From a virus (lineage: Duplodnaviria; Caudoviricetes): 64,000 nucleotides of DNA. The notes under the pieces are model-generated. The model saw only the letters and a program-made list of their open reading frames with translations, did no database searches and was not told where the DNA came from. Location: IMG/VR virus record IMGVR_UViG_3300034170_000057, one strand, 5' to 3'. Shown piece by piece: positions 1,667 through 62,170 of this stretch. Both the position numbers and the translations under genes were made by a program. Positions within the stretch are counted from its first letter, which is position 1. Each line of letters begins with the position of its first letter.

Positions 1667-1714
1667 TTTATTAGTAATCCCGAAAACAGTTTGGGAGATT
1701 ACTGGAGAAAGTCC

Positions 1715-6155: not shown

Positions 6156-6160
6156 ATCGC

Positions 6161-45435: not shown

Positions 45436-46674
45436 ATGTCCAAGAACAAAGAAGTTACCGCCGCACAACAGAACGCTATCCGTCTGATCATCACAGAGCA
45501 AATGGGACTGAAACGCGGGCACCCGATTTGTTCCACCGCTTCGATTGAACACTCCCTGAAAATCGACGATTTGGATCTGGACGAAATCGTCATGAACATG
45601 GAAGAGGAATTCGAAATCGCAATTCCAAACCATGTAGTTAAAAAATGGAACATCGTCTCGGATATGGAACAGTTCATCGCGAACAAAGCGCCGAAGGATT
45701 ACGGGAGTTCGTTCCGGGTTGCACAGCCGAAGAAAATGGCTGTGAAGAAATCCACGGCTGTTGCGCAGCCTGCGAAGTTCCTGAATGGCCGTTCGCACAA
45801 CCTCATGCAGGTTATGGACGAACTTGAGAAAAAGTTGAAGCCTACGAAAGCCACGCAGGGTTTCACAATGCGCAGCGAAGGCACCAGCACCATCGCCTGT
45901 TACGCGGCTGACCCTTCGGTGCCGTTTGCGCGTGCTGTGGTATCGGTAAGCGAAGGCTTTAACGGGTTCCGTTTGTACGTCGGCAAAATGCTGGTGATCG
46001 AACACAACATCGGTTCCGAATCGCACATTCTGGAATTGTGTGAGTTGGCGCGCCATGCGGGCGCATCCATGCCGGTAAGTCTCGACGACTGGATGATTAA
46101 CGTAATCGTGCGTTACGTATCGTGTGTGAAGAAAACGCTGCGATATATGCAGCACCTGAGCAATCACAAAGACGCCATGCAGCAGTTGTATAATTTGCAA
46201 AACACGTTCGAATTAAAAATCTCGACACGGGTTTTCGATTTCTACGCTGGCGACCACCTTCTGGAAAATTGTTCGGCGGATGTGCTGCGCGTGTTTACCG
46301 AAATGCTGGAATCGGTTCACACCAAAGACGGCGTTGGCTACACATACGGTTCTTCGTTCCGTGAGGGTGACGACGAAGACGACGATGGCGAAGACGAATT
46401 CCCATCCGAAACTATTATCGTCGAGGACGAAGACGAAATCGTGGATTTGCTGGCTGCCGTTTCTACGCCCGGTCTGGTCGCCATTTTCAACCACATCGCG
46501 AATCTAGGCATGGGCGATTTTGACAATTCCGAAGTTTACGAATTGTCGGGTATTAAACGCCGGATCGAAATCATCCACGAACTCTGCGACAACCTGCACA
46601 TGGCGGCGCTGGTGGAATGCGCACAGGCCGTCGATTTGAAACCGGGTGACGCGGCAATTTTTGCCGGGAGATAA
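45436..46674 (+). CDS. protein with N-terminal acyl-carrier-protein-like domain lacking the Ppant serine
   Basis: LKIDDLDLDEIVMNMEEEFEIAIP aligns without gaps to AcpP [24 protein letters not shown]; Ser->Asp at 45568-45570. Confidence 0.85.
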   Translation: MSKNKEVTAAQQNAIRLIITEQMGLKRGHPICSTASIEHSLKIDDLDLDEIVMNMEEEFEIAIPNHVVKKWNIVSDMEQFIANKAPKDYGSSFRVAQPKKMAVKKSTAVAQPAKFLNGRSHNLMQVMDELEKKLKPTKATQGFTMRSEGTSTIACYAADPSVPFARAVVSVSEGFNGFRLYVGKMLVIEHNIGSESHILELCELARHAGASMPVSLDDWMINVIVRYVSCVKKTLRYMQHLSNHKDAMQQLYNLQNTFELKISTRVFDFYAGDHLLENCSADVLRVFTEMLESVHTKDGVGYTYGSSFREGDDEDDDGEDEFPSETIIVEDEDEIVDLLAAVSTPGLVAIFNHIANLGMGDFDNSEVYELSGIKRRIEIIHELCDNLHMAALVECAQAVDLKPGDAAIFAGR

Positions 46675-46677
46675 AAA

Positions 46678-46875
46678 ATGGTTAAGGTAGTTTCTGCACC
46701 GCCCCTGCTTTTTCGTTGCACCAGTTGCGGTGCGACGTGTGAGGGTGAAGAAAAAGATTTCAAAGAGCAGCACACAATGCCGCCGACGTGGAAAGTCAAA
46801 TGCGGTTATTGCAACCTGACAAATACCGTCAGCCCTTCGGCGCTGATTTCAAGACTGGTCGGCACACGCTTTTAA
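46678..46875 (+). CDS. small Zn-ribbon protein
   Basis: CTSC...CGYC. Confidence 0.65.
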   Translation: MVKVVSAPPLLFRCTSCGATCEGEEKDFKEQHTMPPTWKVKCGYCNLTNTVSPSALISRLVGTRF

Positions 46876-46890
46876 TCGAGGAAGTAAAAG

Positions 46891-47466
46891 ATGGATAAGT
46901 TGAAACTTGCAAAATGGATTCGTGACGCAATGGCCGCCCGCGAAAATTCATTCGATACGGTGGCGTCTGCACAGGCGCAGGAAAACGCCTACCGTGAACG
47001 GGAATTGATGGTCGCGGCTGGCGATAAACATGCCTACATGTACGGCATTGTCGATCACGCCAAGTTCTACCGCATGACCCAACGTGAAGCGGTCGAAAGC
47101 GTGGTTCCTGCGGAGTTCGTGGAACCTGTTTATCTGCTGCTGGTGACAGCGTGGAACGATATCCAAGGCTGGTGTGACGATGTGGAAGGGATCGTGCGCC
47201 CTGCGCGTTCCTACGCGGTCACAGGCACAGAAGCCGATAGTGACTCTCACGTAATGGGCGGCGACTACAACTTCGAAACCACGTTCGATCCGGGTACGCC
47301 TGACGAAAAGAAATGTCAGACGCAGGTATGGGCACCGAACATGCTCCACGCCGCTTTCCAAGTCGGCCAACTGTTCGCGGAAAAGTTCGCGACTGATTTC
47401 ACCGTGGTTCCTATCCAGCCAGTGATTCTGAAACTGGAAAAGGTGGGCGAAGCTGAAGCCACGTAA
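46891..47466 (+). CDS. hypothetical protein
   Basis: GAGGA RBS. Confidence 0.7.
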   Translation: MDKLKLAKWIRDAMAARENSFDTVASAQAQENAYRERELMVAAGDKHAYMYGIVDHAKFYRMTQREAVESVVPAEFVEPVYLLLVTAWNDIQGWCDDVEGIVRPARSYAVTGTEADSDSHVMGGDYNFETTFDPGTPDEKKCQTQVWAPNMLHAAFQVGQLFAEKFATDFTVVPIQPVILKLEKVGEAEAT

Positions 47467-47550
47467 TTAACCTGACCCACTTTAATGCACATTCGTTGAG
47501 TGTGCATTGCAGATAAATCAGCATTCTCCTAACCGTAAAGGATACCCGAA

Positions 47551-48378
47551 ATGAGACAGACCGAAGTCCGTGCTAAATTCCCCGACCACAAATTGGTTTT
47601 CTCCGTCGCCAAAGCCCGTGCGTTTGAAAATCGAACGCTGTCGATTTACGTGAAGGGCACCAACGAATTCGTGGCGACCATCGAACAGCGGTCTGAAAAA
47701 GCTGTGGCGATGATCGTGCGACCGGGCCGGGGTAAAACTGCTTTGGCGAAATTCGTAGCGTTCGCGGAAGTGGGCAGCTACAAAAACGTGCATGAAGTTG
47801 AAAAGGCGATGAACGCCGAGCGTAAATTCGACGGCCTCGGAAATGTCGAGTGGGAAGACGCCCGCAAACAGTTCGTCAAAATGCAGGATCAGGATTTCGA
47901 CACGCTTATCAAAATGCTGGCTGTTTATTTCGGCGTGCTGGAAAATCGCAACAACGGCTATTCTAGTGAGCATTTCCAGTACCTGACTGCACAAGGTAAG
48001 ACGCTGTACCGTAATGCCGTGCAGATTGCTTCTGGCGCTACCTACGACACCGGCACAAAGGTTCCTGCGTTCCCCGGTAACGGCGGGCCGTTGCGTGAAC
48101 TGGCAATGTCTCCCGATGATCTGGCTAAGGCTTCCAAGCTGCTGCAAACGTCGCCAGTGGCACAGGTTGCACAAACCATTGCCGAGGGTAAGCAGAAACG
48201 TGAAGACCTCGACAAACGCACCGTGTGGGGCGCTGAAGACGACGCGATTTTCGAAATGGTCCAAGCCGATCACAAAATCCTATCTGATCGTCTGGCTGTT
48301 CTGTATTCCGCACGCGGCAGTAAAATCTCGATTCCGGAATTTGATCGTATCCGGAAAGCAAAAAAGGAAGCGCAATAA
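47551..48378 (+). CDS. hypothetical protein
   Basis: 275 aa, AAGGA RBS. Confidence 0.75.
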   Translation: MRQTEVRAKFPDHKLVFSVAKARAFENRTLSIYVKGTNEFVATIEQRSEKAVAMIVRPGRGKTALAKFVAFAEVGSYKNVHEVEKAMNAERKFDGLGNVEWEDARKQFVKMQDQDFDTLIKMLAVYFGVLENRNNGYSSEHFQYLTAQGKTLYRNAVQIASGATYDTGTKVPAFPGNGGPLRELAMSPDDLAKASKLLQTSPVAQVAQTIAEGKQKREDLDKRTVWGAEDDAIFEMVQADHKILSDRLAVLYSARGSKISIPEFDRIRKAKKEAQ

Positions 48379-48875
48379 TGCCTAAATCATCATCGTTCAT
48401 TATCAAGACGCGGCAGACCAACGGAATTACGGAACAGTTCGCCCGGTTAGTCGGGTATGAGCCGTACCCGGATGGCCGGTTTCTACAGGTTGGCGACAAC
48501 GGCGTTAAATGCCTGTACCGGCCCCTGATTGACGAAAACGGTTACGAAGGTGTGTGCCCCGTCGAATTCAATCCGTATGAAAACGGCAGCGATGCAATGC
48601 AGGTCGCCGCGTATTTGCGTGCATTTATTTGCGTGAGTGCTGACGGAAAACAAGTCAGCGTGGCAACCAACGATTTCGAAGCGGTTGCAGATTTGCCACA
48701 AAACAAGTCGTACATGCAACAGCATGCGAAAATCATGCGCGATACGATCATGGCCGTGGCTGCAATGTACGTGAAGAAACATTTCGACATTGACCCGCCA
48801 GTAAATACAACGACGCGTTCGGAAACCCACGAACCCACCGCCGCCCCTCACGTAAAGACCTACATCAAGGAATAA
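48378..48875 (+). CDS. hypothetical protein
   Basis: 165 aa. Confidence 0.7.
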   Translation: MPKSSSFIIKTRQTNGITEQFARLVGYEPYPDGRFLQVGDNGVKCLYRPLIDENGYEGVCPVEFNPYENGSDAMQVAAYLRAFICVSADGKQVSVATNDFEAVADLPQNKSYMQQHAKIMRDTIMAVAAMYVKKHFDIDPPVNTTTRSETHEPTAAPHVKTYIKE

Positions 48876-48880
48876 TCAAA

Positions 48881-49207
48881 ATGATGTTGTCGTGCAATAA
48901 AGTCAGCCGCGATCTTTCTGCGTGGACCCCTGAACAATTTTCGTTGGTGCAGAAATTCGCCCCGGCCAATCACCCGCTGATGTTTCCTGTGGACGAAAAG
49001 CCGATTTATTTGACGCTGGATAAATGCGTCGATCAGTTGAGCGATATTCACATCCGCATTATTCGTGATTTCGATTTTCGCGATCAGCTATCGGAACGTG
49101 TGCAACTGCACCAAGCTGGTTTGCTTGTAATGATCCTAATGGACCTGCTGATGCGTAGTGGCATTGCAGGAACCGAAACCCTGACATGGGACTACGGCGA
49201 TGAGTAA
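48881..49207 (+). CDS. hypothetical protein
   Basis: 108 aa. Confidence 0.6.
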   Translation: MMLSCNKVSRDLSAWTPEQFSLVQKFAPANHPLMFPVDEKPIYLTLDKCVDQLSDIHIRIIRDFDFRDQLSERVQLHQAGLLVMILMDLLMRSGIAGTETLTWDYGDE

Positions 49208-50231
49208 AATTTACGTGGATCTTTCCATAGGCCAGACCACGCCAATCGGTAAGGCACTGGGGCACATCTGGTACAGCAACCGGGCTCTGCGTGATCTAGG
49301 GCCGGGTATCAGTGGCTATCCGCACAACGGCGGCGAGCATTCCATGAGCATTACAGGCACGCCTGACGACTGCTTAGCGTTCATGGATTTGATCGGGGAG
49401 AAATATCCGATTGCACGCGACGACATGAATTTGTTTTCGTCGCACGTGAAAGCAAATCCTGAAAAGAAAAGTTTCGAAGCGCGGCAATTCTTCAACGATT
49501 TGCTGCGTCTGGAAATGGCGATCAGTTGCCACACGATTGATCTTTCGTCGGGTGAACGGAATATGTTCGGGGCCAACGTCCTGCACATGTACGAAATCCG
49601 TAAAGACCTTATGGCGAAGGCGCCGAACCTGTGTGGTTATCCGCACCCTGAATACGGCTCGATGTTTATCCAAGGTACGGGCCTTGAACTGGATAAATTC
49701 CTCAACGAATTTTCCACCGTGTACGACGACGCACAAACCTGCGAAGCCTGTGATGATATGCAGCGTGCATTGCGTGAAGGCCAGCCGGTGATTCGCGCCT
49801 ACCGTTACCTGCACCCGGAGAAATATCAGCCGGTATTTCCAGACTCCTATATGTTCGGGAAATTCACGCAGGTTTATATGGTCGAGGAACAATTCTCTTT
49901 CGGCCACATGATTTCGGCGCGTGATTCGTTTATCGGTAAGGCCCTGTGGGAAGTGGTGGACGTTACCTACACGCCTAAAAACTTCACGGTGTATTTCGTG
50001 AATGATTTCGCCATGGCGTTTACCTACAAAGAAATCGGTTTCGAATACGGCGAAGAAACAGACTTCGCATCTGATTACTCGCCAGCGTCCCGGACAGCAC
50101 CGGAAGGCGAAGCGATGGTTAGATTGCAGCAGTGCATTCGTTCCTACGCCGACCGCTACGACGAAAAGTTGGCGTGGTTTGCCGAGCAGATTGCAAACGA
50201 TCCACGCTACGGAAAACAGGGGCAGAGCTAA
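49200..50231 (+). CDS. hypothetical protein with internal GYPH repeat
   Basis: GYPH...SM.I.GT occurs twice. Confidence 0.75.
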   Translation: MSKIYVDLSIGQTTPIGKALGHIWYSNRALRDLGPGISGYPHNGGEHSMSITGTPDDCLAFMDLIGEKYPIARDDMNLFSSHVKANPEKKSFEARQFFNDLLRLEMAISCHTIDLSSGERNMFGANVLHMYEIRKDLMAKAPNLCGYPHPEYGSMFIQGTGLELDKFLNEFSTVYDDAQTCEACDDMQRALREGQPVIRAYRYLHPEKYQPVFPDSYMFGKFTQVYMVEEQFSFGHMISARDSFIGKALWEVVDVTYTPKNFTVYFVNDFAMAFTYKEIGFEYGEETDFASDYSPASRTAPEGEAMVRLQQCIRSYADRYDEKLAWFAEQIANDPRYGKQGQS

Positions 50232-50677
50232 TGGGTATCGTCGTCGGTTTTCACAAGCGCCCGGAAAGTGTAAATGGAATGAGCGAGCGCATTTTGCCCT
50301 CGATGGTAATTCCCGGCTTTCGCCTGTTCGTTGCCTACGGGCTGGCACCCTACAACGAACGCAGCTACGTGGCTGAAATCCTGATCCGTAGTTCGCCACG
50401 GGTGCAGTGTACGTCCGTAGGGCCTGTGGAAATGATCACCTATCGTTCTGTGCGTGATGGAAAGGTCAGTGGTTTTGAAGGTGAAATGTCATTGCGTGAT
50501 TGCGGCATTATCCAGAATACCTACAACATGCACTGCGCGTTTCTCACACGCGAAGCTGCCGACGCCTATCTACGGCGGATCGAAGCAGAACAGTTCACGC
50601 ACTTCGAAAAGCGTAAGTGGGACAAACTCAACGAGCGCCGCTCGATCACAATCAAGGGAACAAAGGGGAAGAAATAA
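50231..50677 (+). CDS. hypothetical protein (paralogue of 51519-51941)
   Basis: SLRDCGIIQNTYNMHCAFLTREAADAY. Confidence 0.7.
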   Translation: MGIVVGFHKRPESVNGMSERILPSMVIPGFRLFVAYGLAPYNERSYVAEILIRSSPRVQCTSVGPVEMITYRSVRDGKVSGFEGEMSLRDCGIIQNTYNMHCAFLTREAADAYLRRIEAEQFTHFEKRKWDKLNERRSITIKGTKGKK

Positions 50678-51360
50678 TGCGCCATCAAATCGGTGAAAAG
50701 GTTTGGGTATTTTGGGCCGACATTGAAGACGGTTTCATGTATCCGTTTTATTCTCTCTTCAACAAGTTTGCCGAAGTGGCACCGGCTGATTTCCCGGCTG
50801 TGCAATTTCGTGAACTGACCGTTACCGAACACCATCGGGTAAAAGGCGAATACGACTGTAAAGACGCGGAGCCGACCCACGACGGTTATGTCCTGTCGGA
50901 TGCGAAAGGCGGTGTGTGGCACAACCAATACCCGTATGCAGAATTAGGCGGGCAAATGTCTGACGGTGCCCACCACGTTTTCAGTATCAGCAACGAAGGC
51001 GAGGAAGGGCGCGTGTTACTGGAATGGATGCGCGTCAACGCAGGCAGTTTGCGAGGCACTGCACCGTCACCGGCTTCTATGGCACTACTGACCCACGAAC
51101 TGCGGGACATTCGCCGCGCCCTGCACACACTGGAAACTGGCAAAGGCTATTTCGGTCAAACGTCCGAACCCGATTTGCCGCGTGCTGAAAAACTGCGGGC
51201 GTGGTTCGAATATATCCTCGGTGAATTCGGCAAACAAACCGGCCTGTCGATTAACGAAGAGCCGTGCATGGTCGCGGACAAAGACAACGACGACCAGAAA
51301 AAACATCTGGCGGGCTGGTACGATTTCACGATTGTCGAGGCACCCAAAAATGAAGCGTGA
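50677..51360 (+). CDS. hypothetical protein
   Basis: 227 aa. Confidence 0.7.
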   Translation: MRHQIGEKVWVFWADIEDGFMYPFYSLFNKFAEVAPADFPAVQFRELTVTEHHRVKGEYDCKDAEPTHDGYVLSDAKGGVWHNQYPYAELGGQMSDGAHHVFSISNEGEEGRVLLEWMRVNAGSLRGTAPSPASMALLTHELRDIRRALHTLETGKGYFGQTSEPDLPRAEKLRAWFEYILGEFGKQTGLSINEEPCMVADKDNDDQKKHLAGWYDFTIVEAPKNEA

Positions 51361-51550
51361 AATGCAAATCGCAGCAGACACGTGTTACGAGGTCTGCAAT
51401 TACAACCAAGCTCGCTTTCTGGAGCTGATGTTAGCGCAGGGCTACGCAGCGGATCACCCGGATCTGGAATGGCTGTTAAAAAACTGGGAATTCGACGACG
51501 CTGGCCCCATGAAAAAGGATGCTGCAAATGGCAAAGAACAGGCGAGTTAA
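51350..51550 (+). CDS. hypothetical protein
   Basis: GAGG RBS. Confidence 0.5.
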   Translation: MKREMQIAADTCYEVCNYNQARFLELMLAQGYAADHPDLEWLLKNWEFDDAGPMKKDAANGKEQAS

Positions 51551-51941
51551 ATACGCGGAACTGAAAGCCGGTATGACGGTGTACAAGGTGTATGCCTTTC
51601 CACACCGTGGGGAATCATCGTGGATCGTCACCTATCACGTGCTGGGCCGTCCGAAGGCTGGCCTTTCAGGTAAGGCCAAGAAACACCACTTCGTGCCGTA
51701 CACTGAATTCAATTTCTTTGACGGAAAACGCCTTGAATACAAATTCAGTATTGGCGATGCAAACGTGATTCCGAACCACTACAATTTCCACCGGCTATTC
51801 CATACCAAGAAAGCAGCCGAGGCCTACGCGAAACGCGTGCGCGCCGGGTGCCTCACAGCAGCAGAACGTAAAAGTATAGGCCGCCATGATCGCCTGTGGG
51901 CCTCTACGAAATCGGCGGTGTATCTCAAAAAAGCAGCGTAA
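51519..51941 (+). CDS. hypothetical protein (paralogue of 50231-50677)
   Basis: SIGDANVIPNHYNFHRLFHTKKAAEAY. Confidence 0.7.
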   Translation: MLQMAKNRRVKYAELKAGMTVYKVYAFPHRGESSWIVTYHVLGRPKAGLSGKAKKHHFVPYTEFNFFDGKRLEYKFSIGDANVIPNHYNFHRLFHTKKAAEAYAKRVRAGCLTAAERKSIGRHDRLWASTKSAVYLKKAA

Positions 51942-52164
51942 GTAAACTGACGGCAGTCGAGGAAGTGAAAGTGGATATTATCCAATGCAATATTTCGAGT
52001 TTCAAAGGGGAAGCGGTTCAAGGGGAACGCGACGTGATTAGCAGCAGTCGGGCGCTGGCGCGGAACGATCAGGTTTACACTGATTTCGAACTCATGGTTC
52101 GGCAGGTACAGAAACGCTTCAAAAAGCACGCGAAGAAATTTCGCAAACAACGGGCAACAATCGC

Positions 52165-52428
52165 ATGATCTATGTGACGGCATTTTGCGTGACGTTCATC
52201 GCAATTTTCCTGAAGGGTTTCCAGTTCAAAAATATCCAGCACAATAAGTGGTGGGGCATGTTCACCACCTCCTATGTGCAGGGCACGTTTGAATTCGTTG
52301 CAGCAGGCACCTACGCCACGATCTTTCTGCAAGGTACGTGGTGGTACTGCTTTATCAATGGATCGGCGGCTGCGATTTCAATCGTTTGCTCGACGTGGTT
52401 ACACAACAGATGGTTCGCATCCACCTGA
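52165..52428 (+). CDS. small membrane protein
   Basis: Three hydrophobic segments. Confidence 0.6.
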   Translation: MIYVTAFCVTFIAIFLKGFQFKNIQHNKWWGMFTTSYVQGTFEFVAAGTYATIFLQGTWWYCFINGSAAAISIVCSTWLHNRWFAST

Positions 52429-52504
52429 CGAACTAGTGAAGGGCATCTAGACTGGTGCCCTTTGCAGTGCAATCAGATACTGTAAATAATACGAGGGGCT
52501 AATT

Positions 52505-52930
52505 ATGCCAGCCGTCATTGATTCGTTTAGCATCACCTACGACTATCACCGTCTGCTGATCCGCAAGGGTTTCGAAAACGGCGGGGAAACGTTGGAAAAC
52601 TTCCTGCATTATTTTCGGCAGGACTACAACGCGCAAGATGTGGTGTTCGCTGATCCGGGTTTGGGTTGGCAGTCGAACCAGTATGACGGCAAAGTGTGTG
52701 TCGGCATTTTCTGGATTTACACGCTGACCGCTGGCGGGCACAAACCGTTGCGTGTTGGAATTATCAGCACCAACGTTCACCACATGGAACACGCGGCGCT
52801 GAAATGGTTGAATGCACACCGCCAGCGCAACCCGGACAACTCCGGTCGGTGGCCTACGGTTAAATTGTCCGAGTCACGTACCGACGCAGAAGTTTGCCCG
52901 GTGCAAATTCCTGAAGAGGGAATGTTTTAA
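52505..52930 (+). CDS. hypothetical protein
   Basis: GAGG RBS downstream of CTGTAAATA motif. Confidence 0.7.
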   Translation: MPAVIDSFSITYDYHRLLIRKGFENGGETLENFLHYFRQDYNAQDVVFADPGLGWQSNQYDGKVCVGIFWIYTLTAGGHKPLRVGIISTNVHHMEHAALKWLNAHRQRNPDNSGRWPTVKLSESRTDAEVCPVQIPEEGMF

Positions 52931-52979
52931 GCTGTAAAAGTTTGCAACACGGAAATCTAAAAATGAGGAAGGCGAGATA

Positions 52980-53330
52980 ATGTACTACGGCGGAAGTAAA
53001 CCACGGAAAGAATATCCACGTTTGAGCGAAGCAGAATTCTTGCTGCACGCCAAATGGATGCGTACCAGTCTGGAAGTGAAAGCGACGAAGGGCGCTTATC
53101 TGGTGATGGTCGAAGGCTTGACCCAAAAGGAAGCCGCTGCCATTTCGGGTTCCAGTCAATCGAACGTGAACGAAGCCGTACAGCGCACGTCGCGCCGCCA
53201 TTACGAATTGATGGAAGTTTACGGCGCACGTTTGGGGAGTACAGCGCACGAACTTCTGGAAAACGTACTAGGTACTGTCGCGAACGGGGAATGGCAAAAT
53301 GGCAAAGAGCAAATCACAAAAGCAGGCTGA
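52980..53330 (+). CDS. TrfB/KorA-like HTH transcription regulator
   Basis: YLVMVEGLTQKEAAAISGSSQSNVNEAVQR. Confidence 0.6.
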   Translation: MYYGGSKPRKEYPRLSEAEFLLHAKWMRTSLEVKATKGAYLVMVEGLTQKEAAAISGSSQSNVNEAVQRTSRRHYELMEVYGARLGSTAHELLENVLGTVANGEWQNGKEQITKAG

Positions 53331-53538
53331 AGCAATTGAACGCAAGTTATCGTTTTGGGATTTGAATTTTGCGCGGTACTCTGACCGGCAGTTTCCAAAC
53401 CGTATATACAACGATCACCAGAAGCGTTTCGGGAAAGAATATGCCGACCGCGAAGCCACACACGCCCACCGTCTGTTTGCCACTTACTGCAATGAAGTAG
53501 GTCGGGATTTCCATGGCAACCCCGTTCAAGGAAAGTAA
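53299..53538 (+). CDS. hypothetical protein
   Basis: 79 aa. Confidence 0.5.
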   Translation: MAKSKSQKQAEAIERKLSFWDLNFARYSDRQFPNRIYNDHQKRFGKEYADREATHAHRLFATYCNEVGRDFHGNPVQGK

Positions 53539-54448
53539 AATGCAGCGTCCTAAACCACGCGTAGAGTACAGCGAAAAATTCCAAATGTTCGCTGATAACT
53601 TGATTACCCGTTGCGCGGAAACGAGCAGCGAGAAAGTGCGTATGACCCGCCGCCATGTAAATGCGCTGGCGGCCTACTATGGATTCGCCCCGCTGACTAA
53701 TCCGAACCAACGTGCGTTGCGTGAACTCATGGGCGAGCGTGGGTATAAAATTCAAATCGGTGCAGCCGCTGTTTTTCTGTCCCGGTTGCCGGTCACGAAT
53801 GTGGAACCCGCAATGTGGCCCGCACTGATCGACAACATTTGTCAAAAGCTGGGTGCGCTCTATCACACGTCGGACGAAAACACGTCGGGTAAAAAGCTAC
53901 TGCGTATGACCCCTGCGAAATTCCGGAACATTGCGACTATCTGGCCCGCTGATAATCTGGCTTTCAATCAGGCGTGTATCGAGGAAATGTTTGAACTCGG
54001 CTACACGATGATTTTCCGCGTGAACTACATCGACGTTTGTGCAATCGGTGACGAATCCAAACCGGGTAAGCGGAAAGCCAACGTAAAGCAGGCGCAACCG
54101 CTGATTGCCTTGATGAATGGGCGCGCTCTGTTGGAGGCTGCATTGCACCCGCGCCGTCTGGCTTGGCGTGCGGGGTTTTCTCATGCACTGATGATCAATG
54201 CCAAAGGCAAAGGCAGTTGGGCCTCTACAGCGCTCTCAAGGGCCTTGCTGAACCTGCGGGAGCCCGTACACGATAGCAACGGCGCCGCAATGACAACTCT
54301 CGCTTTGAACCACGGCGACGTTTTGCTGGTGAACGAAGCTGCCTATCCACTGATCAAATCTTGCACCGTCCGTTGCCTCGATTCTGGCTCCGTTTATGAG
54401 CCGGATATTTTGGCGAGGGCATTGAACGGGGATTCTGTAAATGACTGA
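53513..54448 (+). CDS. hypothetical protein
   Basis: About 300 aa; start may be 53540. Confidence 0.7.
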   Translation: MATPFKESKMQRPKPRVEYSEKFQMFADNLITRCAETSSEKVRMTRRHVNALAAYYGFAPLTNPNQRALRELMGERGYKIQIGAAAVFLSRLPVTNVEPAMWPALIDNICQKLGALYHTSDENTSGKKLLRMTPAKFRNIATIWPADNLAFNQACIEEMFELGYTMIFRVNYIDVCAIGDESKPGKRKANVKQAQPLIALMNGRALLEAALHPRRLAWRAGFSHALMINAKGKGSWASTALSRALLNLREPVHDSNGAAMTTLALNHGDVLLVNEAAYPLIKSCTVRCLDSGSVYEPDILARALNGDSVND

Positions 54449-55001
54449 AGAGGTAGAACGTTCGAACAGCGCTTTCGTGACAAGGTTGTGTGCGATGAAA
54501 TTGCACAACCTGCGTCAGGTTTACGGCAACATGACATTTCGTGAAGTGGTCGAACTGGCAGAACAGTCAGACGATTATTTGTCGGCCATGAACGTATTTG
54601 ATCCTGCGTGGAAAAAGTTCACGCATGACCGCCGCGTGTTTTGGGAATATGCGTGGCTGCTTACCAGCGAAAGCGGTGGCACTTTTAGCCCGTCTGATTC
54701 ACACGTGAAATATCACAATTTCATCGTGGCGCATCCGTGGCAGCAACCGAACCTCGATTGGTGCGGTTACAAGGAATGGCTGCATAACCGGAAAGAAGAC
54801 GTGTGCGAAGAGTGGGGCCACTGGTTGCCCGTGTATTTGCGACCGGACGAAGTGGCGAGCTATGCACTGAAAATTTACCACCACCATAAAGGCCTGAATG
54901 GGCACGGTTGGCTGGCGGGAATTGAAATCGAAGAACTGGCTGTGGAGGACGATCCGCAGGTTCTATCAACGCTCCGTAATATTCAAGGGGAACGGAAATA
55001 A
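54441..55001 (+). CDS. hypothetical protein
   Basis: 186 aa. Confidence 0.7.
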   Translation: MTEEVERSNSAFVTRLCAMKLHNLRQVYGNMTFREVVELAEQSDDYLSAMNVFDPAWKKFTHDRRVFWEYAWLLTSESGGTFSPSDSHVKYHNFIVAHPWQQPNLDWCGYKEWLHNRKEDVCEEWGHWLPVYLRPDEVASYALKIYHHHKGLNGHGWLAGIEIEELAVEDDPQVLSTLRNIQGERK

Positions 55002-55672
55002 TGACGGCTTGTATCAGAAAGCGGGAAGGTGGGGTTTATTGGTTCGAAGGTTGTGCTGGCGACACGATTTCCAAGAATATCGACGAAGTGATCGAAAAGC
55101 TGAAAGAGCTGGAGGCCGAGGGCCAGCAGGTTAAGGGCATTCTGACTTTCAACGGTCTGGAACTGAATCTGCTGCACAACACTGACCCTGCGCTGGCGCT
55201 CGTTGTGTGGAATTCTGCGTGCGATAAACGTCACGAGGAATACATCGCTTCGGACAGTTACAAAGTGCAGCAGGAAGCGGCTGCAAAACGCCTGATCGTT
55301 TCACAGAAAAATATGGATGAATTGGTTGCACAAATTCGCCCGTTGCTTTCTGATTGGGCTGCTGTGAATGGTGGTTCTGGTATCCAGCCAAATGGAGATA
55401 CCGCGCTTCGGTTGATGGCGCTACTCAAAGAGTACATCGAAGAAGCCGACAACATTCATATCAATCACTACGGCCCGGAAATTGTCGTGCTGTTGGAAGC
55501 TGCCGGGTACAAGGAAAACGAATACACGGGCGGCAATAAACCCGTGAAGCAATACGAAACCCGTGCGTGGTTTTGTGGGCAAATGCTCAACATGATGAAA
55601 AGCCCTATGGGTTGTGCCCATCCGGGGCTAGCCTCGATGGTCGATAAATATAAACTGCATCTGAATCCGTGA
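55001..55672 (+). CDS. hypothetical protein
   Basis: 223 aa. Confidence 0.7.
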   Translation: MTACIRKREGGVYWFEGCAGDTISKNIDEVIEKLKELEAEGQQVKGILTFNGLELNLLHNTDPALALVVWNSACDKRHEEYIASDSYKVQQEAAAKRLIVSQKNMDELVAQIRPLLSDWAAVNGGSGIQPNGDTALRLMALLKEYIEEADNIHINHYGPEIVVLLEAAGYKENEYTGGNKPVKQYETRAWFCGQMLNMMKSPMGCAHPGLASMVDKYKLHLNP

Positions 55673-55707
55673 GCTGACGGCTACACTGAGGAAGGCGAGG
55701 AAGACAA

Positions 55708-55920
55708 ATGGAAAATCGTTCTTACGAAATCGTCGATGATCGGTACGAACCGAAAAAAGGCGTGAACATTGCTGAAGCCATCCAACACGCGGTCGAGGAT
55801 GTGCAGGCAAACGCCACGGCGAAATTTGGGCTCGACGCCGAGCGCTGTGTACCCTTTACCCATAATGATCGCCCACGCGACGTGTGGGATGCGTTAATGG
55901 AAAAGATGAGGAACAATTGA
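55708..55920 (+). CDS. hypothetical protein
   Basis: GAGGA RBS. Confidence 0.6.
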   Translation: MENRSYEIVDDRYEPKKGVNIAEAIQHAVEDVQANATAKFGLDAERCVPFTHNDRPRDVWDALMEKMRNN

Positions 55921-56291
55921 TGGCCCTGAAGTTTGAGAATTGCAAACGCCGTTTTGACGTGACGGTAAAAATCCAGACGTATGACAAACACGATTGGCAG
56001 ACCGAGTACGAAGGCTCGATGTGCGTGTGGTCATATAGCCCATCCCTGCGTCAACTGACCGATCCGATTTTGGATGAAACCAAGCTGAACAAATCGGGCG
56101 CCCGCATTTCGATCCTGTACATTCGCGAACACGAATTCAGCGAATACACCCCGGCGCAAATGGGCAAGATGATGGCGCAGGAAGGCTACACGTTTTCGGA
56201 TAATCCGTATGTCGATACTGACCATTCGCAAGCGGATACTTGGATCGAATCCTTTACCAAGGAAATTGCGTTCCTCAAAAAGCGCGGCTAA
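55920..56291 (+). CDS. hypothetical protein
   Basis: GAGGA RBS. Confidence 0.65.
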   Translation: MALKFENCKRRFDVTVKIQTYDKHDWQTEYEGSMCVWSYSPSLRQLTDPILDETKLNKSGARISILYIREHEFSEYTPAQMGKMMAQEGYTFSDNPYVDTDHSQADTWIESFTKEIAFLKKRG

Positions 56292-56367
56292 ATAAGGCCC
56301 GCTGTAAAAGTAGTAATCGGGAAGTCTAACGGTAGAACAACCCTTAACGTGGAAAGTGAGAAAACAA

Positions 56368-58371
56368 ATGAGTGATTTTACCCAGTTCGGTAAAGCCGTA
56401 CACAACGCGTTCAACACCATGCTCGCCAAAGATAACGGCAAGAAAAACAACGTGTTTGTCGTGGCTGCAACCGGTGATGAATTGTGGGCGCATTACCTTG
56501 CGTCATTCCCTGAAGGCACCAACCCGATTTTCCGCACGCGCACTGAATACGATTGTTCGTGCTGCAAAAACTTTATCCGGAATATCGGCGGTGTAGTTTT
56601 CATGCAGGGCGGCGTTCGCCAGTCTGTGTGGGATATCGTTATCGAAGACGAACTGTTCCAGACCATCGCGGATTCCATGGCGAAGTTCGTAAAGAAATTG
56701 CCAATCGCACACCATTTCATCGTCAGCGAACCAGCCTACGGCGCTGAGACAACCAACACCAACGGCGAGAAGTGGCACCACTTCCACGCCAAGGTGCCTG
56801 CAATTTTCCTGTGGAAGCACAACGAAAGTAACTACGTCGGCGTGCGCCAAAACAACGTCGATGGTCTGAAGCGTTCCATCAAAGAAATTTCCGATGAATC
56901 CATCGAACAAGTTAGCGACTTGATTGATCAGGATTCGCTGTACAAGGGAGCGGAGTTCAAGTGGGCTATTGACCTGCTGCGCAAACTGAAACGTCAGTAC
57001 GCCGCACTGAAAACCAAAGCGAAGCGTGAATCGTTTTTGTGGGAAAACGCAACGGACCACACAAACATTCGTGGCAACGTGCTGGGTACGCTGCTGATTG
57101 ACCTGACAAAGGGCAAAGACCTCGAAGAAGCCGTGAAGGCATTCGAATTTAAAACCGCTGGCCCGAACTACAAGCGTTCGAAAGCACTGGTCAGCCAACG
57201 CATGATCGACGAAGCACAAAAGACAGTTGAAAAACTGGGCCTCGACGATTCGCTGTCACGTCGTTACGCAGTGCGTGAAGACATTTCGGTAAACGATGTT
57301 TTGTTTGTCGATGGTTCCGTGAAAAAGCAACTGCTGGGCGGCGCGTTCGACAGCATCAAGCCGACCAAGAAAGCGGCGGTGCCAGAACTGAAAGAAGTCG
57401 AAGAAATCAATTACAAAGATTTCCTCAAAAAGGTTCTGCCAAAAGCCGATACGCTCGAAGTGTTCTTGACCAATGAACACATGTCGAATTTCGTCAGCCT
57501 GATTGCGCCGGTACACGCCGATGCAAAACCGCTGCTGAAATGGGACAACGCATTTTCGTGGTCATACGACGGTGAAGTTACCGATTCGATCCGTGAGCGC
57601 GTGAAGAAAGCCGGTGGTAAAGTTGACGGTGATATTCGCGTGTCGCTTTCGTGGCACAACGCGGACGACCTCGACCTGCACATGACCAATGGCCGGGAAG
57701 AGATTTACTATCACAGCCGTAGCCACTTCGGCGCCACGCTCGACGTGGACATGAACGGCATGGACAAACGCGACGATGTGGCCCCGGTGGAAAACATCGT
57801 GTGGTCCAACAAAGCCAATGCGAAACCGGGCCGTTACGAAATTGTTGTGCATAATTACAGCAAGCGTTCCACGGCAAACGTCGGCTTCGAAGTTGAAGTC
57901 GAAGTGCTGGGCAAAATGTACAGCTACGCACACCCTACCGACCTTCGCGGTCAAGGTCGTATCACGGTTGGTTTTATCGTCGTTGCAAAAGACGGTGCAA
58001 TTACCGTGGAAGGCCTGAAGTTCGGCGGTTCGTCGAGTGAGAAATGGGGCGTGAAATCCGAAGAGTGGATTCCGGTCGATCTGATCACGAAGTCTCCGAA
58101 CTTCTGGAATGATCAAACCGTAGGCCATGAGCATATTTTCCTGATGCTCAAAGGCTGCGCAAACGAAGAGGGCACACGCGGTTTCTACAACGAATACCTG
58201 CGTGACGAACTGCACCCGCACCGTAAAGTTTTCGAAGTCGTTTCTTCGCAAATGAAAGTGCCGTACAGCGCTGATCAATTGAGCGGCCTTGGCTTCTCGA
58301 CTTCCAAGCGTGCCGAAATTCTGGTGCGTGTGAAAGGTGCAATCAATCGCGTTCTGAACGTTAAGTTCTAA
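56368..58371 (+). CDS. large phage protein with CSCC motif and YfaP/DUF2135-like domain
   Basis: YDCSCCKNFIRNIG; GDIRVSLSWHNADDLDLHM...LDVDMN...PVENIVW...GRYEIVVHNYS. Confidence 0.75.
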   Translation: MSDFTQFGKAVHNAFNTMLAKDNGKKNNVFVVAATGDELWAHYLASFPEGTNPIFRTRTEYDCSCCKNFIRNIGGVVFMQGGVRQSVWDIVIEDELFQTIADSMAKFVKKLPIAHHFIVSEPAYGAETTNTNGEKWHHFHAKVPAIFLWKHNESNYVGVRQNNVDGLKRSIKEISDESIEQVSDLIDQDSLYKGAEFKWAIDLLRKLKRQYAALKTKAKRESFLWENATDHTNIRGNVLGTLLIDLTKGKDLEEAVKAFEFKTAGPNYKRSKALVSQRMIDEAQKTVEKLGLDDSLSRRYAVREDISVNDVLFVDGSVKKQLLGGAFDSIKPTKKAAVPELKEVEEINYKDFLKKVLPKADTLEVFLTNEHMSNFVSLIAPVHADAKPLLKWDNAFSWSYDGEVTDSIRERVKKAGGKVDGDIRVSLSWHNADDLDLHMTNGREEIYYHSRSHFGATLDVDMNGMDKRDDVAPVENIVWSNKANAKPGRYEIVVHNYSKRSTANVGFEVEVEVLGKMYSYAHPTDLRGQGRITVGFIVVAKDGAITVEGLKFGGSSSEKWGVKSEEWIPVDLITKSPNFWNDQTVGHEHIFLMLKGCANEEGTRGFYNEYLRDELHPHRKVFEVVSSQMKVPYSADQLSGLGFSTSKRAEILVRVKGAINRVLNVKF

Positions 58372-58413
58372 TCGCAATCCAAACGCAAATTCCTGCAAAA
58401 AAGAGAGAAAGTT

Positions 58414-58839
58414 ATGACTGAAGTTACTGCAAACATTTTCGAACAAGCCGCTCGCTACAAACTGCGTTTCCCTACTGATATCGGTAGCCTGACGGTTGAA
58501 CAGGTATGGGAACTGCCGCTGGAAGCCAAGGCCGGTAAACTGAGCCTCGACTTGATCGCCATCGACCTGCACGAGCAGCTGGAAAAGGTCAAAACCAAGA
58601 GCTTCGTTTCGGGCTCGAAAAAAGATCCGATCACTCAACTGCAATTCGATATCGTGAAGCACATCATCGACACCCGTATCGCTGAAAACAAAGCGAAAAC
58701 CGAATCGAAAAAACGCGAAAGCGAAATCGCGAAAATCACCGACACTCTCGCCAAGAAGAAAGACGAAGCGCTGGATGGTCTGTCGGTTGAAGCGCTGGAA
58801 GCACGCCTGCTGGAACTGAAAGGCGGCGCTGCGCAGTAA
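58414..58839 (+). CDS. small coiled-coil partner of the upstream gene
   Basis: NIFEQAARYKLRFPT..G.LTVEQVWELPL; charged helical tail. Confidence 0.75.
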   Translation: MTEVTANIFEQAARYKLRFPTDIGSLTVEQVWELPLEAKAGKLSLDLIAIDLHEQLEKVKTKSFVSGSKKDPITQLQFDIVKHIIDTRIAENKAKTESKKRESEIAKITDTLAKKKDEALDGLSVEALEARLLELKGGAAQ

Positions 58840-58901
58840 GCCCCAAACAGTTTGCACGTTCTGTTCAAAAACGTGCCACCTAATTCTGTAAGGATTCCGA
58901 C

Positions 58902-59204
58902 ATGGCACGCATAGCAAATCACGTTATGGCTGCGTCGAAAGAAATCGAAAAACTTTCTTTCGAATTGAAGAAAGGTAATCGGCTTTTAACCACCAGTGAA
59001 ATTAAAGCGCTGGACGTGCTGACTCACGAAGTTTACGCGTTGCGTGACAACCTCATAAAGGCGCTGCGTGGGCAAGGTATGCCTGTAAAAGATATCGCTG
59101 CAATTTTCGATGTATCTCCGGCCCGTATAAGCCAGCTGACTTCAGTCAAGCGAACCAAACCACGGGTGCCGGATATTATTCCAAGAGGTGACAATGAAAC
59201 TTGA
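58902..59204 (+). CDS. HTH (sigma region-4-like) protein
   Basis: LRGQGMPVKDIAAIFDVSPARISQL. Confidence 0.7.
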   Translation: MARIANHVMAASKEIEKLSFELKKGNRLLTTSEIKALDVLTHEVYALRDNLIKALRGQGMPVKDIAAIFDVSPARISQLTSVKRTKPRVPDIIPRGDNET

Positions 59205-59664
59205 TTGGGATGCGATCATGAAACGTATGCCGATTTACGCATACGAATATGAGGCGGTCGGCCTCAACGTGATGACGCCTAGCATTGATTACTGGCGCCC
59301 ACACGAACACCCGCCGCACCACATGCCACCGCGTGGCTGGACGGGTATCGACTACGACCTGAGCTACGATAACCTGTGCAAGGCACTCGACGGCTGGTTG
59401 AAAGAGGATTTCAATCCAAACGAAAAAGTGGTGTTGCTGGATATCGACACCGGCCATTTTTCTAACACGTTTCTTTACCGCGACAATTTGGATTCTACGC
59501 TGAAAGAAATCGCGGCGTTGAAGGCAGGCAACATCGAGGAAGTTGGGCAGCTAACGAAGAACTGGAAGTTTATCGTCTACCGGTGTGAATCTGATCCAGA
59601 TTTCGAGTTTACGCACATGATGAAAATCGTGACGAAAACCAAAGCAGAGCGAAAAGGCAAATGA
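59194..59664 (+). CDS. hypothetical protein
   Basis: GAGG RBS. Confidence 0.7.
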   Translation: MKLDWDAIMKRMPIYAYEYEAVGLNVMTPSIDYWRPHEHPPHHMPPRGWTGIDYDLSYDNLCKALDGWLKEDFNPNEKVVLLDIDTGHFSNTFLYRDNLDSTLKEIAALKAGNIEEVGQLTKNWKFIVYRCESDPDFEFTHMMKIVTKTKAERKGK

Positions 59665-60152
59665 CCGAACGCGGTGACACTATCAAATTGAGCCGGGCCA
59701 AAAAGATACTGGCTCCATACAAAAACGTGCCGGAAATCTGCAAGGTTTTCGAAGCGACTTTCAAAGACAATTTCATCATCGTGTTTTTCATTGAAGGTTT
59801 GACCCTCACGTTGACCGATTCAAAGGGCCTGCGCCTTAGTTACTCGCTCGCAGACGCCTACGACGTGCTATGTGATATAGGCATTCGTTCGTTCGTCGTT
59901 GTGCGGCAACCTGAGCCGCTGGAACCACGACCGGGCGCACGTCAGGAAGACGAACCGATTGATCCACCGCATCCGCCCGACCGCCCGACGTTTGAAGACC
60001 TAGATAAACTGGAAGCGTCCGTGATTCGTTTGGCTGCTACAGCGGGCCTAACCATTATGGAAATGGCGCAGGCGATGCGCAGCACCACTAGCCACGTTGG
60101 CAACATGCTGGAATTGAAATACCCACCACGCAATCCACCGAAGGGCCGGTAA
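59661..60152 (+). CDS. hypothetical protein, possible C-terminal HTH
   Basis: GLTIMEMAQAMRSTTSHVGNML. Confidence 0.6.
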   Translation: MTERGDTIKLSRAKKILAPYKNVPEICKVFEATFKDNFIIVFFIEGLTLTLTDSKGLRLSYSLADAYDVLCDIGIRSFVVVRQPEPLEPRPGARQEDEPIDPPHPPDRPTFEDLDKLEASVIRLAATAGLTIMEMAQAMRSTTSHVGNMLELKYPPRNPPKGR

Positions 60153-60538
60153 TGGCAATCAAAAATAAAGTGACGGTCATACAGCGGCTGAAGTGGCGAC
60201 CAATCGGATACCCTATGCATTTTTGCAGCCGCCACAAATGTTCGTTTCGGTTGGGTACTCTGATGGAACGCAAAATCATTGTGTCTACCCTCGGCCATTA
60301 CCTGCCAGAAGACGGCAAGCCTATGCAGCCTTTGGGCGGCCACGGCCCGGACGAAGTTCCGGATAGCTTTTTCGAAACGTTCGTTTTTACCGTGTCCCAT
60401 TTTCTGGATGATGGAACGCCGATCATTGGTGAACAGCTGGACGCAAGTCGTTGCAGCACAGCAAAAGTCGCGTACAAACTTCACGACGAAATGTGCGTGA
60501 AATTCCAACTCGAATTGAACATGGGAATGCACCGATGA
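60152..60538 (+). CDS. hypothetical protein
   Basis: 128 aa. Confidence 0.65.
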   Translation: MAIKNKVTVIQRLKWRPIGYPMHFCSRHKCSFRLGTLMERKIIVSTLGHYLPEDGKPMQPLGGHGPDEVPDSFFETFVFTVSHFLDDGTPIIGEQLDASRCSTAKVAYKLHDEMCVKFQLELNMGMHR

Positions 60539-60804
60539 TTCATCCATCGAAAGGCGACCACGCAAATCATCCGGGCCACGGCAACGGTAATTGCCCACTG
60601 CGCACGCAAGTGAACGCACACATTTACGGCACCAGCAGCAACGGTTACGGGTGTTCGTGGACTGGCGGGCACTGCGTCAAATCGGATGCATGCGAAACCC
60701 GTGTGCAGCAGCACGAAGCCGAGGCACCTGACCGCGAACGCCAGCGCGTGTTGGATAACCTGTATTCCAAAAAAGCATTCCGTCGTAAGGGGAAGGTACA
60801 GTGA
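60535..60804 (+). CDS. small Cys/His-rich protein
   Basis: ATGA coupling. Confidence 0.55.
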   Translation: MIHPSKGDHANHPGHGNGNCPLRTQVNAHIYGTSSNGYGCSWTGGHCVKSDACETRVQQHEAEAPDRERQRVLDNLYSKKAFRRKGKVQ

Positions 60805-60910
60805 ACTCTACAGTCGTCGCCGTAATCACCACGTGGCCCGGTGCATTCACAGTTGTGGGTGTGTCATTCGCCATCGCATTTGCAATTGTTTTCGCCATGA
60901 GGGAAATGTA

Positions 60911-61108
60911 ATGCTTACTCAAGTTTTCCTGAAATACCGTGACAGTAAAAACCACGATGTTCGCACCACTGTGATTGCGGAATCGTTGCCACTGGTCCCC
61001 GTCGATGTTTCTGCAATGCTGATTTTGGCGGCGAACCGGATTGAAGAACGTATCGCGGAAGGTACGCTTTCCAACGATGACATTTTCGAAGTAATTGTGC
61101 GTACCTGA
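60911..61108 (+). CDS. hypothetical protein
   Basis: GAGGG RBS. Confidence 0.55.
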   Translation: MLTQVFLKYRDSKNHDVRTTVIAESLPLVPVDVSAMLILAANRIEERIAEGTLSNDDIFEVIVRT

Positions 61109-61126
61109 GAACAAGTGAGGTAGTCG

Positions 61127-61327
61127 ATGGAAGTGGAGGATGATATTCCATTTGCACCAGCCGAGCCGTTGACAGCGGAACAGCTAGAAATAATTGCTGC
61201 GATTAAATGCCAGACCTGTAGCGACCACGGATTCATCGGCGGTTTAGTTCCGTGGGGCGATGGTCAGGTAGATAGCGTTTGTGAACCGTGCCCTGACTGC
61301 AATATGGAAGACTTGAAAAATGCGTGA
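61127..61327 (+). CDS. small acidic Zn-finger protein (DnaJ-type CxxC)
   Basis: CQTCSDHG...CEPCPDC. Confidence 0.6.
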   Translation: MEVEDDIPFAPAEPLTAEQLEIIAAIKCQTCSDHGFIGGLVPWGDGQVDSVCEPCPDCNMEDLKNA

Positions 61328-61589
61328 ATATTCTAACATACGTCGTGAAGACGAAGGCCATCGTTTCTTCCCTGAAGTGGGTTGCAACCTTAACGATTTT
61401 ATCCGCGAAGTTCTGCACTTGATGCAGCACCGAAACTTCCCGATCCAGCCGTTTAAAGCGGTGTGCGTTTTCTGTGAAACTTCGACGTTCGAAATTGAAC
61501 TTGATCACCACGACGATGACGAATCCGCCATCCGAAAATACCGTGCGGAATTCGATGAAATTTGCCGCGCCTATGGAGACGACGTATGA
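61320..61589 (+). CDS. hypothetical protein
   Basis: 89 aa. Confidence 0.55.
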   Translation: MREYSNIRREDEGHRFFPEVGCNLNDFIREVLHLMQHRNFPIQPFKAVCVFCETSTFEIELDHHDDDESAIRKYRAEFDEICRAYGDDV

Positions 61590-62170
61590 GCCTGTCCAAA
61601 AAGCAACAGCAACTCGCATTCGAACTGGTGTGCGCCCATGACCACAAGCTGGCTACGGCGCTGCGCGAGGCCTTCACGGATTCCGACCGGTTGACCTATC
61701 TGGAAAAGCGCACGGCCCTTTCGTCTAGCGGCCTGTCGATCAATCCAAACATGTACCAGAAACCCCCGGCAAAAACATTCAGTTTTATGTGGCGCTTTGA
61801 ATGCACTGATCCGAAGCCGTCACTGCGTGCAGCAATCGACGACGCAGCGAAAAATTACCCGCTGCCAGATGTGGACGCGTGGGACGAAGACCACACAGAA
61901 GGCGAATCTGTATGCGGACGTTTGAACGATGCTGCATACGAAAAAATGGTACGTGAAATTCACGACATGGTTTCTTGCACCATCGGTAGCAAACAGTTCC
62001 AATCGACATTCGCAGACATGGGTGCCGACAATCTGGATATGGTCGATCTGACCCTGAGTATCGAACAGCATTTCGAACTCGAAATTCCTGATGCAGATGT
62101 GGACCTGTGGAAAACTACGCAGGACGTTATCAACTACGTGCAACGCCGTATATCCGAGGTGAAGAAATGA
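61586..62170 (+). CDS. protein with C-terminal acyl-carrier-protein-like domain lacking the Ppant serine
   Basis: DMGADNLDMVDLTLSIEQHFELEIPD...W.T.QDVINYV; Ser->Asn at 62030-62032. Confidence 0.85.
   Translation: MSLSKKQQQLAFELVCAHDHKLATALREAFTDSDRLTYLEKRTALSSSGLSINPNMYQKPPAKTFSFMWRFECTDPKPSLRAAIDDAAKNYPLPDVDAWDEDHTEGESVCGRLNDAAYEKMVREIHDMVSCTIGSKQFQSTFADMGADNLDMVDLTLSIEQHFELEIPDADVDLWKTTQDVINYVQRRISEVKK

Follow-up and report, generated by a model that had tools for sequence, protein, structure and literature searches.

The window examined here is a stretch of 64,000 nucleotides from the virus record IMGVR_UViG_3300034170_000057 (Duplodnaviria; Caudoviricetes), and our subject is a pair of its genes, each of which encodes a domain resembling the acyl carrier protein (ACP) and lacking the serine to which 4'-phosphopantetheine is attached. 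The source of the window is a large phage of the myovirus type; a tail sheath is encoded at 1691-3307, and a dCTP-deaminase-like protein at 12210-13070. Its closest named relatives, with likeness at the protein level only, are two jumbo phages of Pseudomonas, HRDY3 and Lu11, and a nucleotide search of 50,697 phage records with both ACP-like genes returned zero matches. The two proteins, P0001 (open reading frame 45436-46674, 412 amino acids) and P0002 (open reading frame 61586-62170, 194 amino acids), their quoted peptides and the two codons that stand in place of Ser36 of Escherichia coli AcpP, GAT at 45568-45570 for Asp45 and AAT at 62030-62032 for Asn149, lie exactly where a preliminary description of the sequence had put them, and the start sites of both proteins are consistent with those of their orthologues. 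A six-frame scan of the window gave no third ACP-like domain. P0001 and its orthologues are referred to as family 1, and P0002 and its orthologues as family 2; their features are as follows.

45436-46674, plus strand: family-1 gene, 412 amino acids, comprising an ACP-like domain, a basic linker and an orphan C-domain; open reading frame and translation, with 12 full-length orthologues at 50-77% identity.
45436-45699, plus strand: N-terminal ACP-like domain, residues 1-88, net charge about -5; phmmer search of PDB, family profile and PHROG 5934.
45568-45570, plus strand: codon GAT, Asp45, the Ser36 equivalent; orthologue column G8/D3/T1/S1.
45646-45648, plus strand: Trp71, at the position of AcpP Ile62; invariant in family 1; family alignments and AcpP alignment.
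45700-45795, plus strand: basic linker, residues 89-120, isoelectric point 11.3, charge about +7; invariant QPKK..VK...KF.N.R columns.
45796-46671, plus strand: orphan C-domain, residues 121-412, with an acidic low-complexity insert; in HRDY3 and in six further 50%-identity clusters it is also found without the ACP-like domain.
61586-62170, plus strand: family-2 gene, 194 amino acids, comprising an orphan N-domain and an ACP-like domain; open reading frame and translation, its ATG overlapping the stop of the upstream open reading frame.
61586-61915, plus strand: orphan N-terminal domain, residues 1-110, highly conserved (ratio of nonsynonymous to synonymous substitution rates, dN/dS, 0.055 in a close pair).
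61916-62167, plus strand: C-terminal ACP-like domain, residues 111-194, net charge about -7; Pfam PP-binding, phmmer search of PDB, PHROG 5934 and Foldseek.
62030-62032, plus strand: codon AAT, Asn149, the Ser36 equivalent; orthologue column S7/E4/N1.
62108-62110, plus strand: Trp175, at the position of AcpP Ile62; invariant in ten closer family-2 members, Phe in HRDY3.

Homology to acyl carrier proteins

In phmmer searches of PDB sequences, residues 1-95 of P0001 matched E. coli ACP at E 5e-7, in a gap-poor alignment over residues 13-76 that places DDLD on DSLD, and residues 110-194 of P0002 matched ACPs of known structure at E 6.6e-10. Combined into a profile, 12 family-1 N-termini reached ACP chains at E 2.2e-10, covering residues 5-80 of 81, and the Asp45 column aligned on the modified serine of ACP. 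PHROG 5934, annotated 'acyl carrier protein', was matched by both copies, at E 9.5e-9 by the N-terminal one and at E 4.5e-13 by the C-terminal one. The two domains are mutually distant, matching one another only at E ~3e-4. Profile searches had been suggested as a check in the preliminary description; in the one against Pfam PP-binding (PF00550), whose gathering score is 20.8 bits, the C-terminal copy scored 28.8-30.9 bits, and the N-terminal copy fell below the cut-off at 14-15.2 bits. Taken together, these comparisons confirm at the level of sequence homology what had been claimed, namely that both domains are true homologues of ACP without the phosphopantetheine serine, and the likeness that they measure is far above chance.

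The serine that defines an ACP, in the D-S-L motif at the start of helix II, is replaced by Asp45 and Asn149 in the window, and neither copy has a neighbouring serine or threonine in its DxLD motif. Judging from these residues, it is very unlikely that the window domains carry 4'-phosphopantetheine. Since the attachment serine is the defining functional feature and is missing, neither domain should be annotated as an acyl carrier protein. Phosphopantetheinyl transferase and acyl-handling families (Pfam, PHROG) were not found in the ten genes neighbouring the ACP-like genes of the window, and the complete HRDY3 genome gave no PF01648 transferase.

Serine loss in two families

The family-1 set consisted of the 12 full-length orthologues and L006, from an IMG/VR contig. 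Among these 13 the position of the serine is occupied by glycine in eight, aspartate in three, threonine in one (P0027) and serine in one. The only serine-bearing member is L006, which reads KIDSMD with the codon TCA, and its near relative L007 has GGA; P0019 has serine at both -1 and +1. Searching 1.84 billion representative proteins with the family-1 profile revealed a distant orthologue, P0037 (435 amino acids, on a syntenic 280-kb contig), in which a canonical ACP domain with GGDSLD and a PP-binding score of 55.8 bits precedes the same C-domain. The same search returned seven clusters, including the HRDY3 orthologue, in which the C-domain stands alone without an ACP domain. Because P0037 combines GGDSLD with the same C-domain, the family-1 fusion began with a serine-bearing ACP; the serine was lost in the clade of the window, and other lineages lack the domain altogether.

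The orphan C-domain belongs to no Pfam, PHROG, PDB or ESM Atlas family, and a search of PDB with its profile and Pfam scans of distant relatives were also blank. The coexistence of a free ACP and an ACP-less C-domain protein in HRDY3, a Rosetta-stone arrangement, prompted a complex prediction between the family-1 C-domain and its own ACP-like domain; it scored 0.00 and is evidence for nothing. The basic linker at 45700-45795, with its invariant QPKK..VK...KF.N.R columns, may bend back onto the acidic helix II, or else it may be a nucleic-acid-binding segment. Directly downstream of the P0037 gene, starting at its last base, lies a gene for a GNAT-type acetyltransferase (PF00583; L023:722-1105, equivalent to L021:11308-11691). 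The window has no such neighbour, as 46678-47466 gives no Pfam match. Within the 10 kb downstream of P0037, the genes called there by the collection included no PP-binding call, which was sought as a sign of family 2.

Family 2 includes nine orthologues of P0002 at 53-70% identity by BLASTP, or 55-74% in MAFFT alignments, and the HRDY3 protein. The serine is kept in seven of 12 members, i.e. six metagenomic copies (ADSVD) and HRDY3 (MDSLD); the other five comprise the window copy, with asparagine, and four with glutamate. A maximum-likelihood tree groups the serine-less members (support 83/89), which would imply a single loss, and a tree with two losses is not rejected (approximately unbiased test, p 0.088); the N-domain tree is unresolved. 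In HRDY3 a free serine-bearing ACP lies directly downstream of the family-2 orthologue. The orphan N-domain of P0002 gave no family in Pfam, PHROG or the ESM Atlas.

Since each family has serine-bearing relatives (P0037 for family 1; six metagenomic orthologues and HRDY3 for family 2), these alignments show that the serine is ancestral in both and was lost independently in each, in keeping with the preliminary description, which had called the two domains independent. The tabulation of this residue that it had proposed gave a divided answer: family 1 is serine-less in 12 of 13 members, whereas most of family 2 (7 of 12) retains the serine, which is in part the outcome that it had set against its own reading.

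Conservation and selection

Within each ACP-like domain, conservation is highest in helix II, with a mean pairwise identity of 0.76 in family 1 and 0.73 in family 2, and acidic residues are kept there in both families; the observation that helix II is preserved apart from the serine therefore stands. In family 1 the equivalents of AcpP D38, E41 and E47-E49 are invariant or nearly so, and the equivalent of D35 (D44) varies. Serine-less relatives keep the equivalents of D35, D38, E41 and E47-E49 about as well as serine-bearing ones do. The dN/dS of the ACP-like part, calculated from one close pair in each family, is 0.30 in family 1 and 0.32 in family 2. In family 2 the ACP-like domains have a mean identity of 0.57 among serine-less members and 0.85 among serine-bearing members, and the N-domains of the same proteins differ little (0.80 and 0.88, respectively). 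Thus constraint persists, yet is weaker once the serine has been lost; with dN/dS at about 0.3 and helix II the best-conserved part, this is not plain decay.

The preliminary description went further and proposed selection for a surface that cannot be modified. Our results do not support this proposal, because the position varies between G, D, T, N and E and has serine again in L006, most family-2 members keep the serine, and evolution is faster after the loss. The pattern is that of a residue that is no longer important, rather than one that is selected against. The replacements (G, D, N, T and S; E and D in the wider set described below) are residues that suit the first turn of a helix, and the requirement at the former serine position would be purely structural.

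Both domains have tryptophan in place of AcpP Ile62, at the same position, as had been pointed out: W71 is invariant in family 1, and W175 is invariant in the ten closer members of family 2, with Phe in HRDY3. The tryptophan was considered as a diagnostic of serine-less domains and rejected, its enrichment being weak and profile-biased (16/40 compared with 27/134, Fisher p 0.02, uncorrected for relatedness); the serine-bearing phage ACPs of RP13 and PhiXhv-15 also carry it. That the tryptophan may fill the acyl pocket is a lead.

Serine-less domains in other phages and metagenomes

The whole record of phage Lu11 gave exactly two PP-binding matches, each of them serine-less. Lu11_0346 carries a C-terminal ACP-like domain with GVDDLD, and a 241-amino-acid protein encoded near 275.4 kb carries an N-terminal one with LADETD, in which the tryptophan is kept. 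MAM_092 of Serratia phage phiMAM1 has FDELD; across five phiMAM1-like Serratia phages this protein is 88-100% identical, with the motif read in phiMAM1 only. The ACPs of 11 isolated phages that were checked all keep DS(L/I). Among the ACP-like domains in the 150 best matches of the profile search, 56 of 196 are serine-less, and outside families 1 and 2 the count is 40 of 174, with glutamate or aspartate in most of the 40; these shares are somewhat inflated since the query profile is itself serine-less. The 56 domains have glutamate in 21 cases, aspartate in 13, glycine in nine, threonine and proline in three each, glutamine in two, and single others. The serine-less domains are scattered over a poorly resolved tree, on which at least 25 changes are needed, and the contexts examined for the metagenomic relatives look phage-like. 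Serine-less phage ACP-like domains are therefore real and recurrent. We found no paper in the literature that notes serine-less phage ACPs.

Several proteins contain tandem ACP-like domains in which serine-bearing and serine-less copies are mixed. P0034 (300 amino acids) and P0036 (335 amino acids) have a lipoprotein-like signal peptide followed by three such domains, the last of which has DDL or DEV where the other two have DSLD, so that they look like tandem ACPs, secreted or anchored in a membrane, that combine modifiable with unmodifiable copies; P0040, P0056, P0119 and P0136 also have multiple ACP-like domains that include serine-less copies. On the phage-like contig of P0181 (ENA ERZ23486238, 111,683 bp), the gene at 6001-6336 encodes a 111-amino-acid serine-less ACP-like protein (ADDLD) and overlaps by 4 bases the upstream gene at 4856-6004, whose product of 382 amino acids has CTP_transf_like and CoaE domains. 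Going by its domains, this product looks like a fused phosphopantetheine adenylyltransferase and dephospho-coenzyme A kinase, and a link of phage ACP-like proteins to coenzyme A or phosphopantetheine metabolism at this locus is possible.

Other observations on the window

Between the two ACP-like genes, a gene of 671 amino acids (56356-58371, plus strand) matches phrog_1735 from end to end (E 1.8e-257). Its counterparts in the syntenic contigs L003 and L021 are called DUF8224, and a Pfam scan of the window gene gave no match. At 6161-9670 (plus strand), a protein of 1169 amino acids contains an endolysin-like segment (phrog_13118, residues 640-729) and a segment common to very large phage proteins (phrog_34863); it is probably a lysin, either of the tail or injected. 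Among sequencing runs, one peat metatranscriptome from 2020 contained 98% of the sampled words of the family-1 gene, and wastewater runs contained 5-28%. The window was probably derived from this peat sample, which hence is not independent evidence on habitat or expression.

Comparison with known systems

The bacterial type II AcpP (PF00550) and the window domains are homologous over the four helices, share the helix-II pattern D-x-L-D ... E ... EEEF..IP and are acidic. The window domains differ in having no attachment serine, in being fused to orphan domains, in the tryptophan at Ile62 and in that no fatty-acid, polyketide or transferase genes were found nearby. Serine-bearing phage ACPs likewise belong to PHROG 5934, are often encoded by jumbo phages and often have N- or C-terminal extensions, but they keep DS(L/I); examples are Ralstonia RP13 ORF197, Cronobacter GAP32_159, Yersinia fHe-Yen9-04 g153, Burkholderia BCSR5, cyanophages P-HM1 and MED4-213, and HRDY3 XDJ15383 and XDJ15384. 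The serine-less proteins of Lu11 and phiMAM1 share the loss, with aspartate or glutamate for serine, and Lu11 has one C-terminal and one N-terminal copy, as does the window. Their fused parts, however, are not recognisably homologous to those of the window, and their only annotations are 'hypothetical' or 'acyl carrier protein'.

In Plasmodium the mitochondrial ACP, although it has no prosthetic group, is indispensable in its role as a binding subunit of Isd11-Nfs1 (Falekun et al. 2021, PMC8547962). By analogy, this apicomplexan protein, which has lost the prosthetic group and the pathway and is kept for binding and stabilising a partner, may be the best model for the phage domains, and the window domains too keep ACP homology without the attachment serine and are under purifying selection. 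It differs in being a free-standing organelle protein whose partner is the LYR protein Isd11 with Nfs1, whereas the phage domains are parts of fusion proteins, and nothing of the LYR type was identified here. For the idea of a decoy, the toxic apo-ACP of E. coli may serve as a working model; unmodifiable apo-ACP inhibits PlsB and growth, according to the statement in PMC4736557 that cites Keating, Carey and Cronan 1995. That case differs in being an artificial over-expression of the host's own ACP. Among these systems, the window domains would appear to work most like ACP subunits that are free of a prosthetic group.

Proposed role and alternatives

We propose, as the moderately probable interpretation, that both domains are phosphopantetheine-independent docking modules with the ACP fold, acting on a putative partner. 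They descend from serine-bearing phage ACP domains and, having lost the serine to which 4'-phosphopantetheine is attached, are very unlikely to be carriers. Purifying selection retains them, as modules that would be independent of a prosthetic group and in which the acidic recognition helix II (D..D..E.....EEEF..IP) would dock electrostatically onto the basic surface of a partner protein, the candidates being a host ACP client or another phage protein. Docking of this kind would tether the fused orphan domains to the partner; we regard it as the most likely job because the acidic helix II is the part that has been kept best. The interpretation draws on the significant ACP homology of both domains, the ancestral serine in both families, the retention of the domains after its loss, the recurrence of serine-less copies in other phages and the Plasmodium precedent. 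The former serine site would need only to suit the first turn of helix II, so that it drifts among G, D, E, N and T, and occasionally S.

Several results weigh against this interpretation. The N-terminal copy stays under the PP-binding cut-off, and AF2 models of the whole proteins, with the family alignments as input, reached mean predicted local distance difference test (pLDDT) values of 46.7 and 47.7, so that no confident model was obtained. The low-confidence model of P0002 adds a little on the other side, as its helices are at ACP-like places and its 50 best Foldseek matches in PDB are all ACPs (best E 5.9e-3, target TM score 0.52-0.64); with structure prediction failing at pLDDT 47-48, the fold assignment rests on homology. 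The HRDY3 orthologue in family 1 and six further clusters dispense with the ACP domain, and the fused domains match no family searched. The neighbouring domains have lower dN/dS than the ACP-like parts, 0.17 in family 1 and 0.055 in family 2, and the fall in identity from 0.85 to 0.57 points to constraint that was relaxed after the serine was lost in family 2.

The last points would also be expected if the domains were relaxed remnants, in which the ancestral chemistry of a phosphopantetheinylated ACP has been lost and the domain lingers as a folded, acidic part for solubility or spacing, on its way to deletion, in a protein that owes its function to the other domain. The faster divergence after serine loss, a dN/dS in excess of that of the partner domains, the free variation at the serine position, the complete absence of the domain from HRDY3 and six other C-domain clusters, and the drop in PP-binding score from 55.8 bits in P0037 to 14-15 bits in the window all fit this explanation. 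Against it, a dN/dS of 0.3 means clear purifying selection, though from one close pair per family, and helix II, not the hydrophobic core alone, is best kept, with invariant acidic residues at the surface. Serine-less copies also persist in Lu11, in five Serratia phages of the phiMAM1 type and in family 1 over a range of 50-77% identity, and phage genomes usually lose useless sequence fast. We consider it unlikely that the domains are mere remnants.

We are equally doubtful that the domains are decoys, i.e. that they mimic apo- or holo-ACP and occupy the helix-II docking sites of host clients such as AcpS, PlsB, Fab and Lpx enzymes, SpoT, MukB and IscS. Lipid synthesis, the stringent response or some other process that depends on ACP would thereby be shut down or redirected, or the fused domain would be delivered to the client. 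Helix II of family 1 does keep nearly every recognition residue of AcpP, and both genes sit among small ORFan genes, as is typical of host-takeover regions. In the wider set glutamate and aspartate are the commonest replacements (34 of 56) and could mimic the phosphate of the prosthetic group. According to PMC4736557, as far as its account of apo-ACP goes, both a Ser-to-Ala, obligate apo-ACP and over-produced apo-ACP suppress the growth of E. coli. However, the serine-less state is not maintained, as L006 reads serine and most family-2 orthologues retain it; glycine, the commonest residue in family 1, is no phosphate mimic; the identity to bacterial AcpP is only about 30%, with the family-1 domain under the Pfam cut-off; and sister phages manage with a serine-bearing copy or without the domain. 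The same doubt applies to the broader proposal that serine-less ACP mimics form a widespread, unrecognised class of phage host-takeover proteins, in which phages would repeatedly have made an acquired ACP unmodifiable, often with aspartate or glutamate for phosphoserine, and in which the copy would plug into the ACP hub (AcpS, PlsB, SpoT, MukB, IscS, Lpx/Fab).

A role as a carrier is very improbable. Modification at another residue could be imagined from the threonine of P0027, the serine found in one orthologue at the position itself, or the serines at -1 and +1 in P0019, and a different prosthetic group could also be envisaged. The Asp and Asn copies of the window, however, have no adjoining serine or threonine in the DxLD motif, and known phosphopantetheinyl transferases act on a serine at the start of helix II; PF01648 is absent from the complete HRDY3 genome, and no ACP-using enzyme was found among the neighbours of the window genes.

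Implications for phage biology

To our knowledge, ACP genes are frequent in large phages, and no function is known for any of their products. A carrier role is very unlikely for a sizeable share of these, which includes both copies in the window, both copies in Lu11, the phiMAM1-like copy and about one quarter of the nearest metagenomic relatives. The question therefore moves from what phage ACPs carry to what phage ACPs bind. Lu11, which infects Pseudomonas putida, and phiMAM1, which infects Serratia, are cultured phages, and this makes the question directly testable. If the improbable takeover class were real, host lipid or stress signalling would be switched off, or fused effector domains would be delivered. 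Should the partners of the proposed docking modules prove to be host ACP clients, the domains would represent a new form of phage control over lipid synthesis, the stringent response or chromosome handling. If the partners are not host clients, the domains would provide an example from bacterial viruses of the reuse of the ACP fold without its prosthetic group, as in apicomplexan mitochondria.

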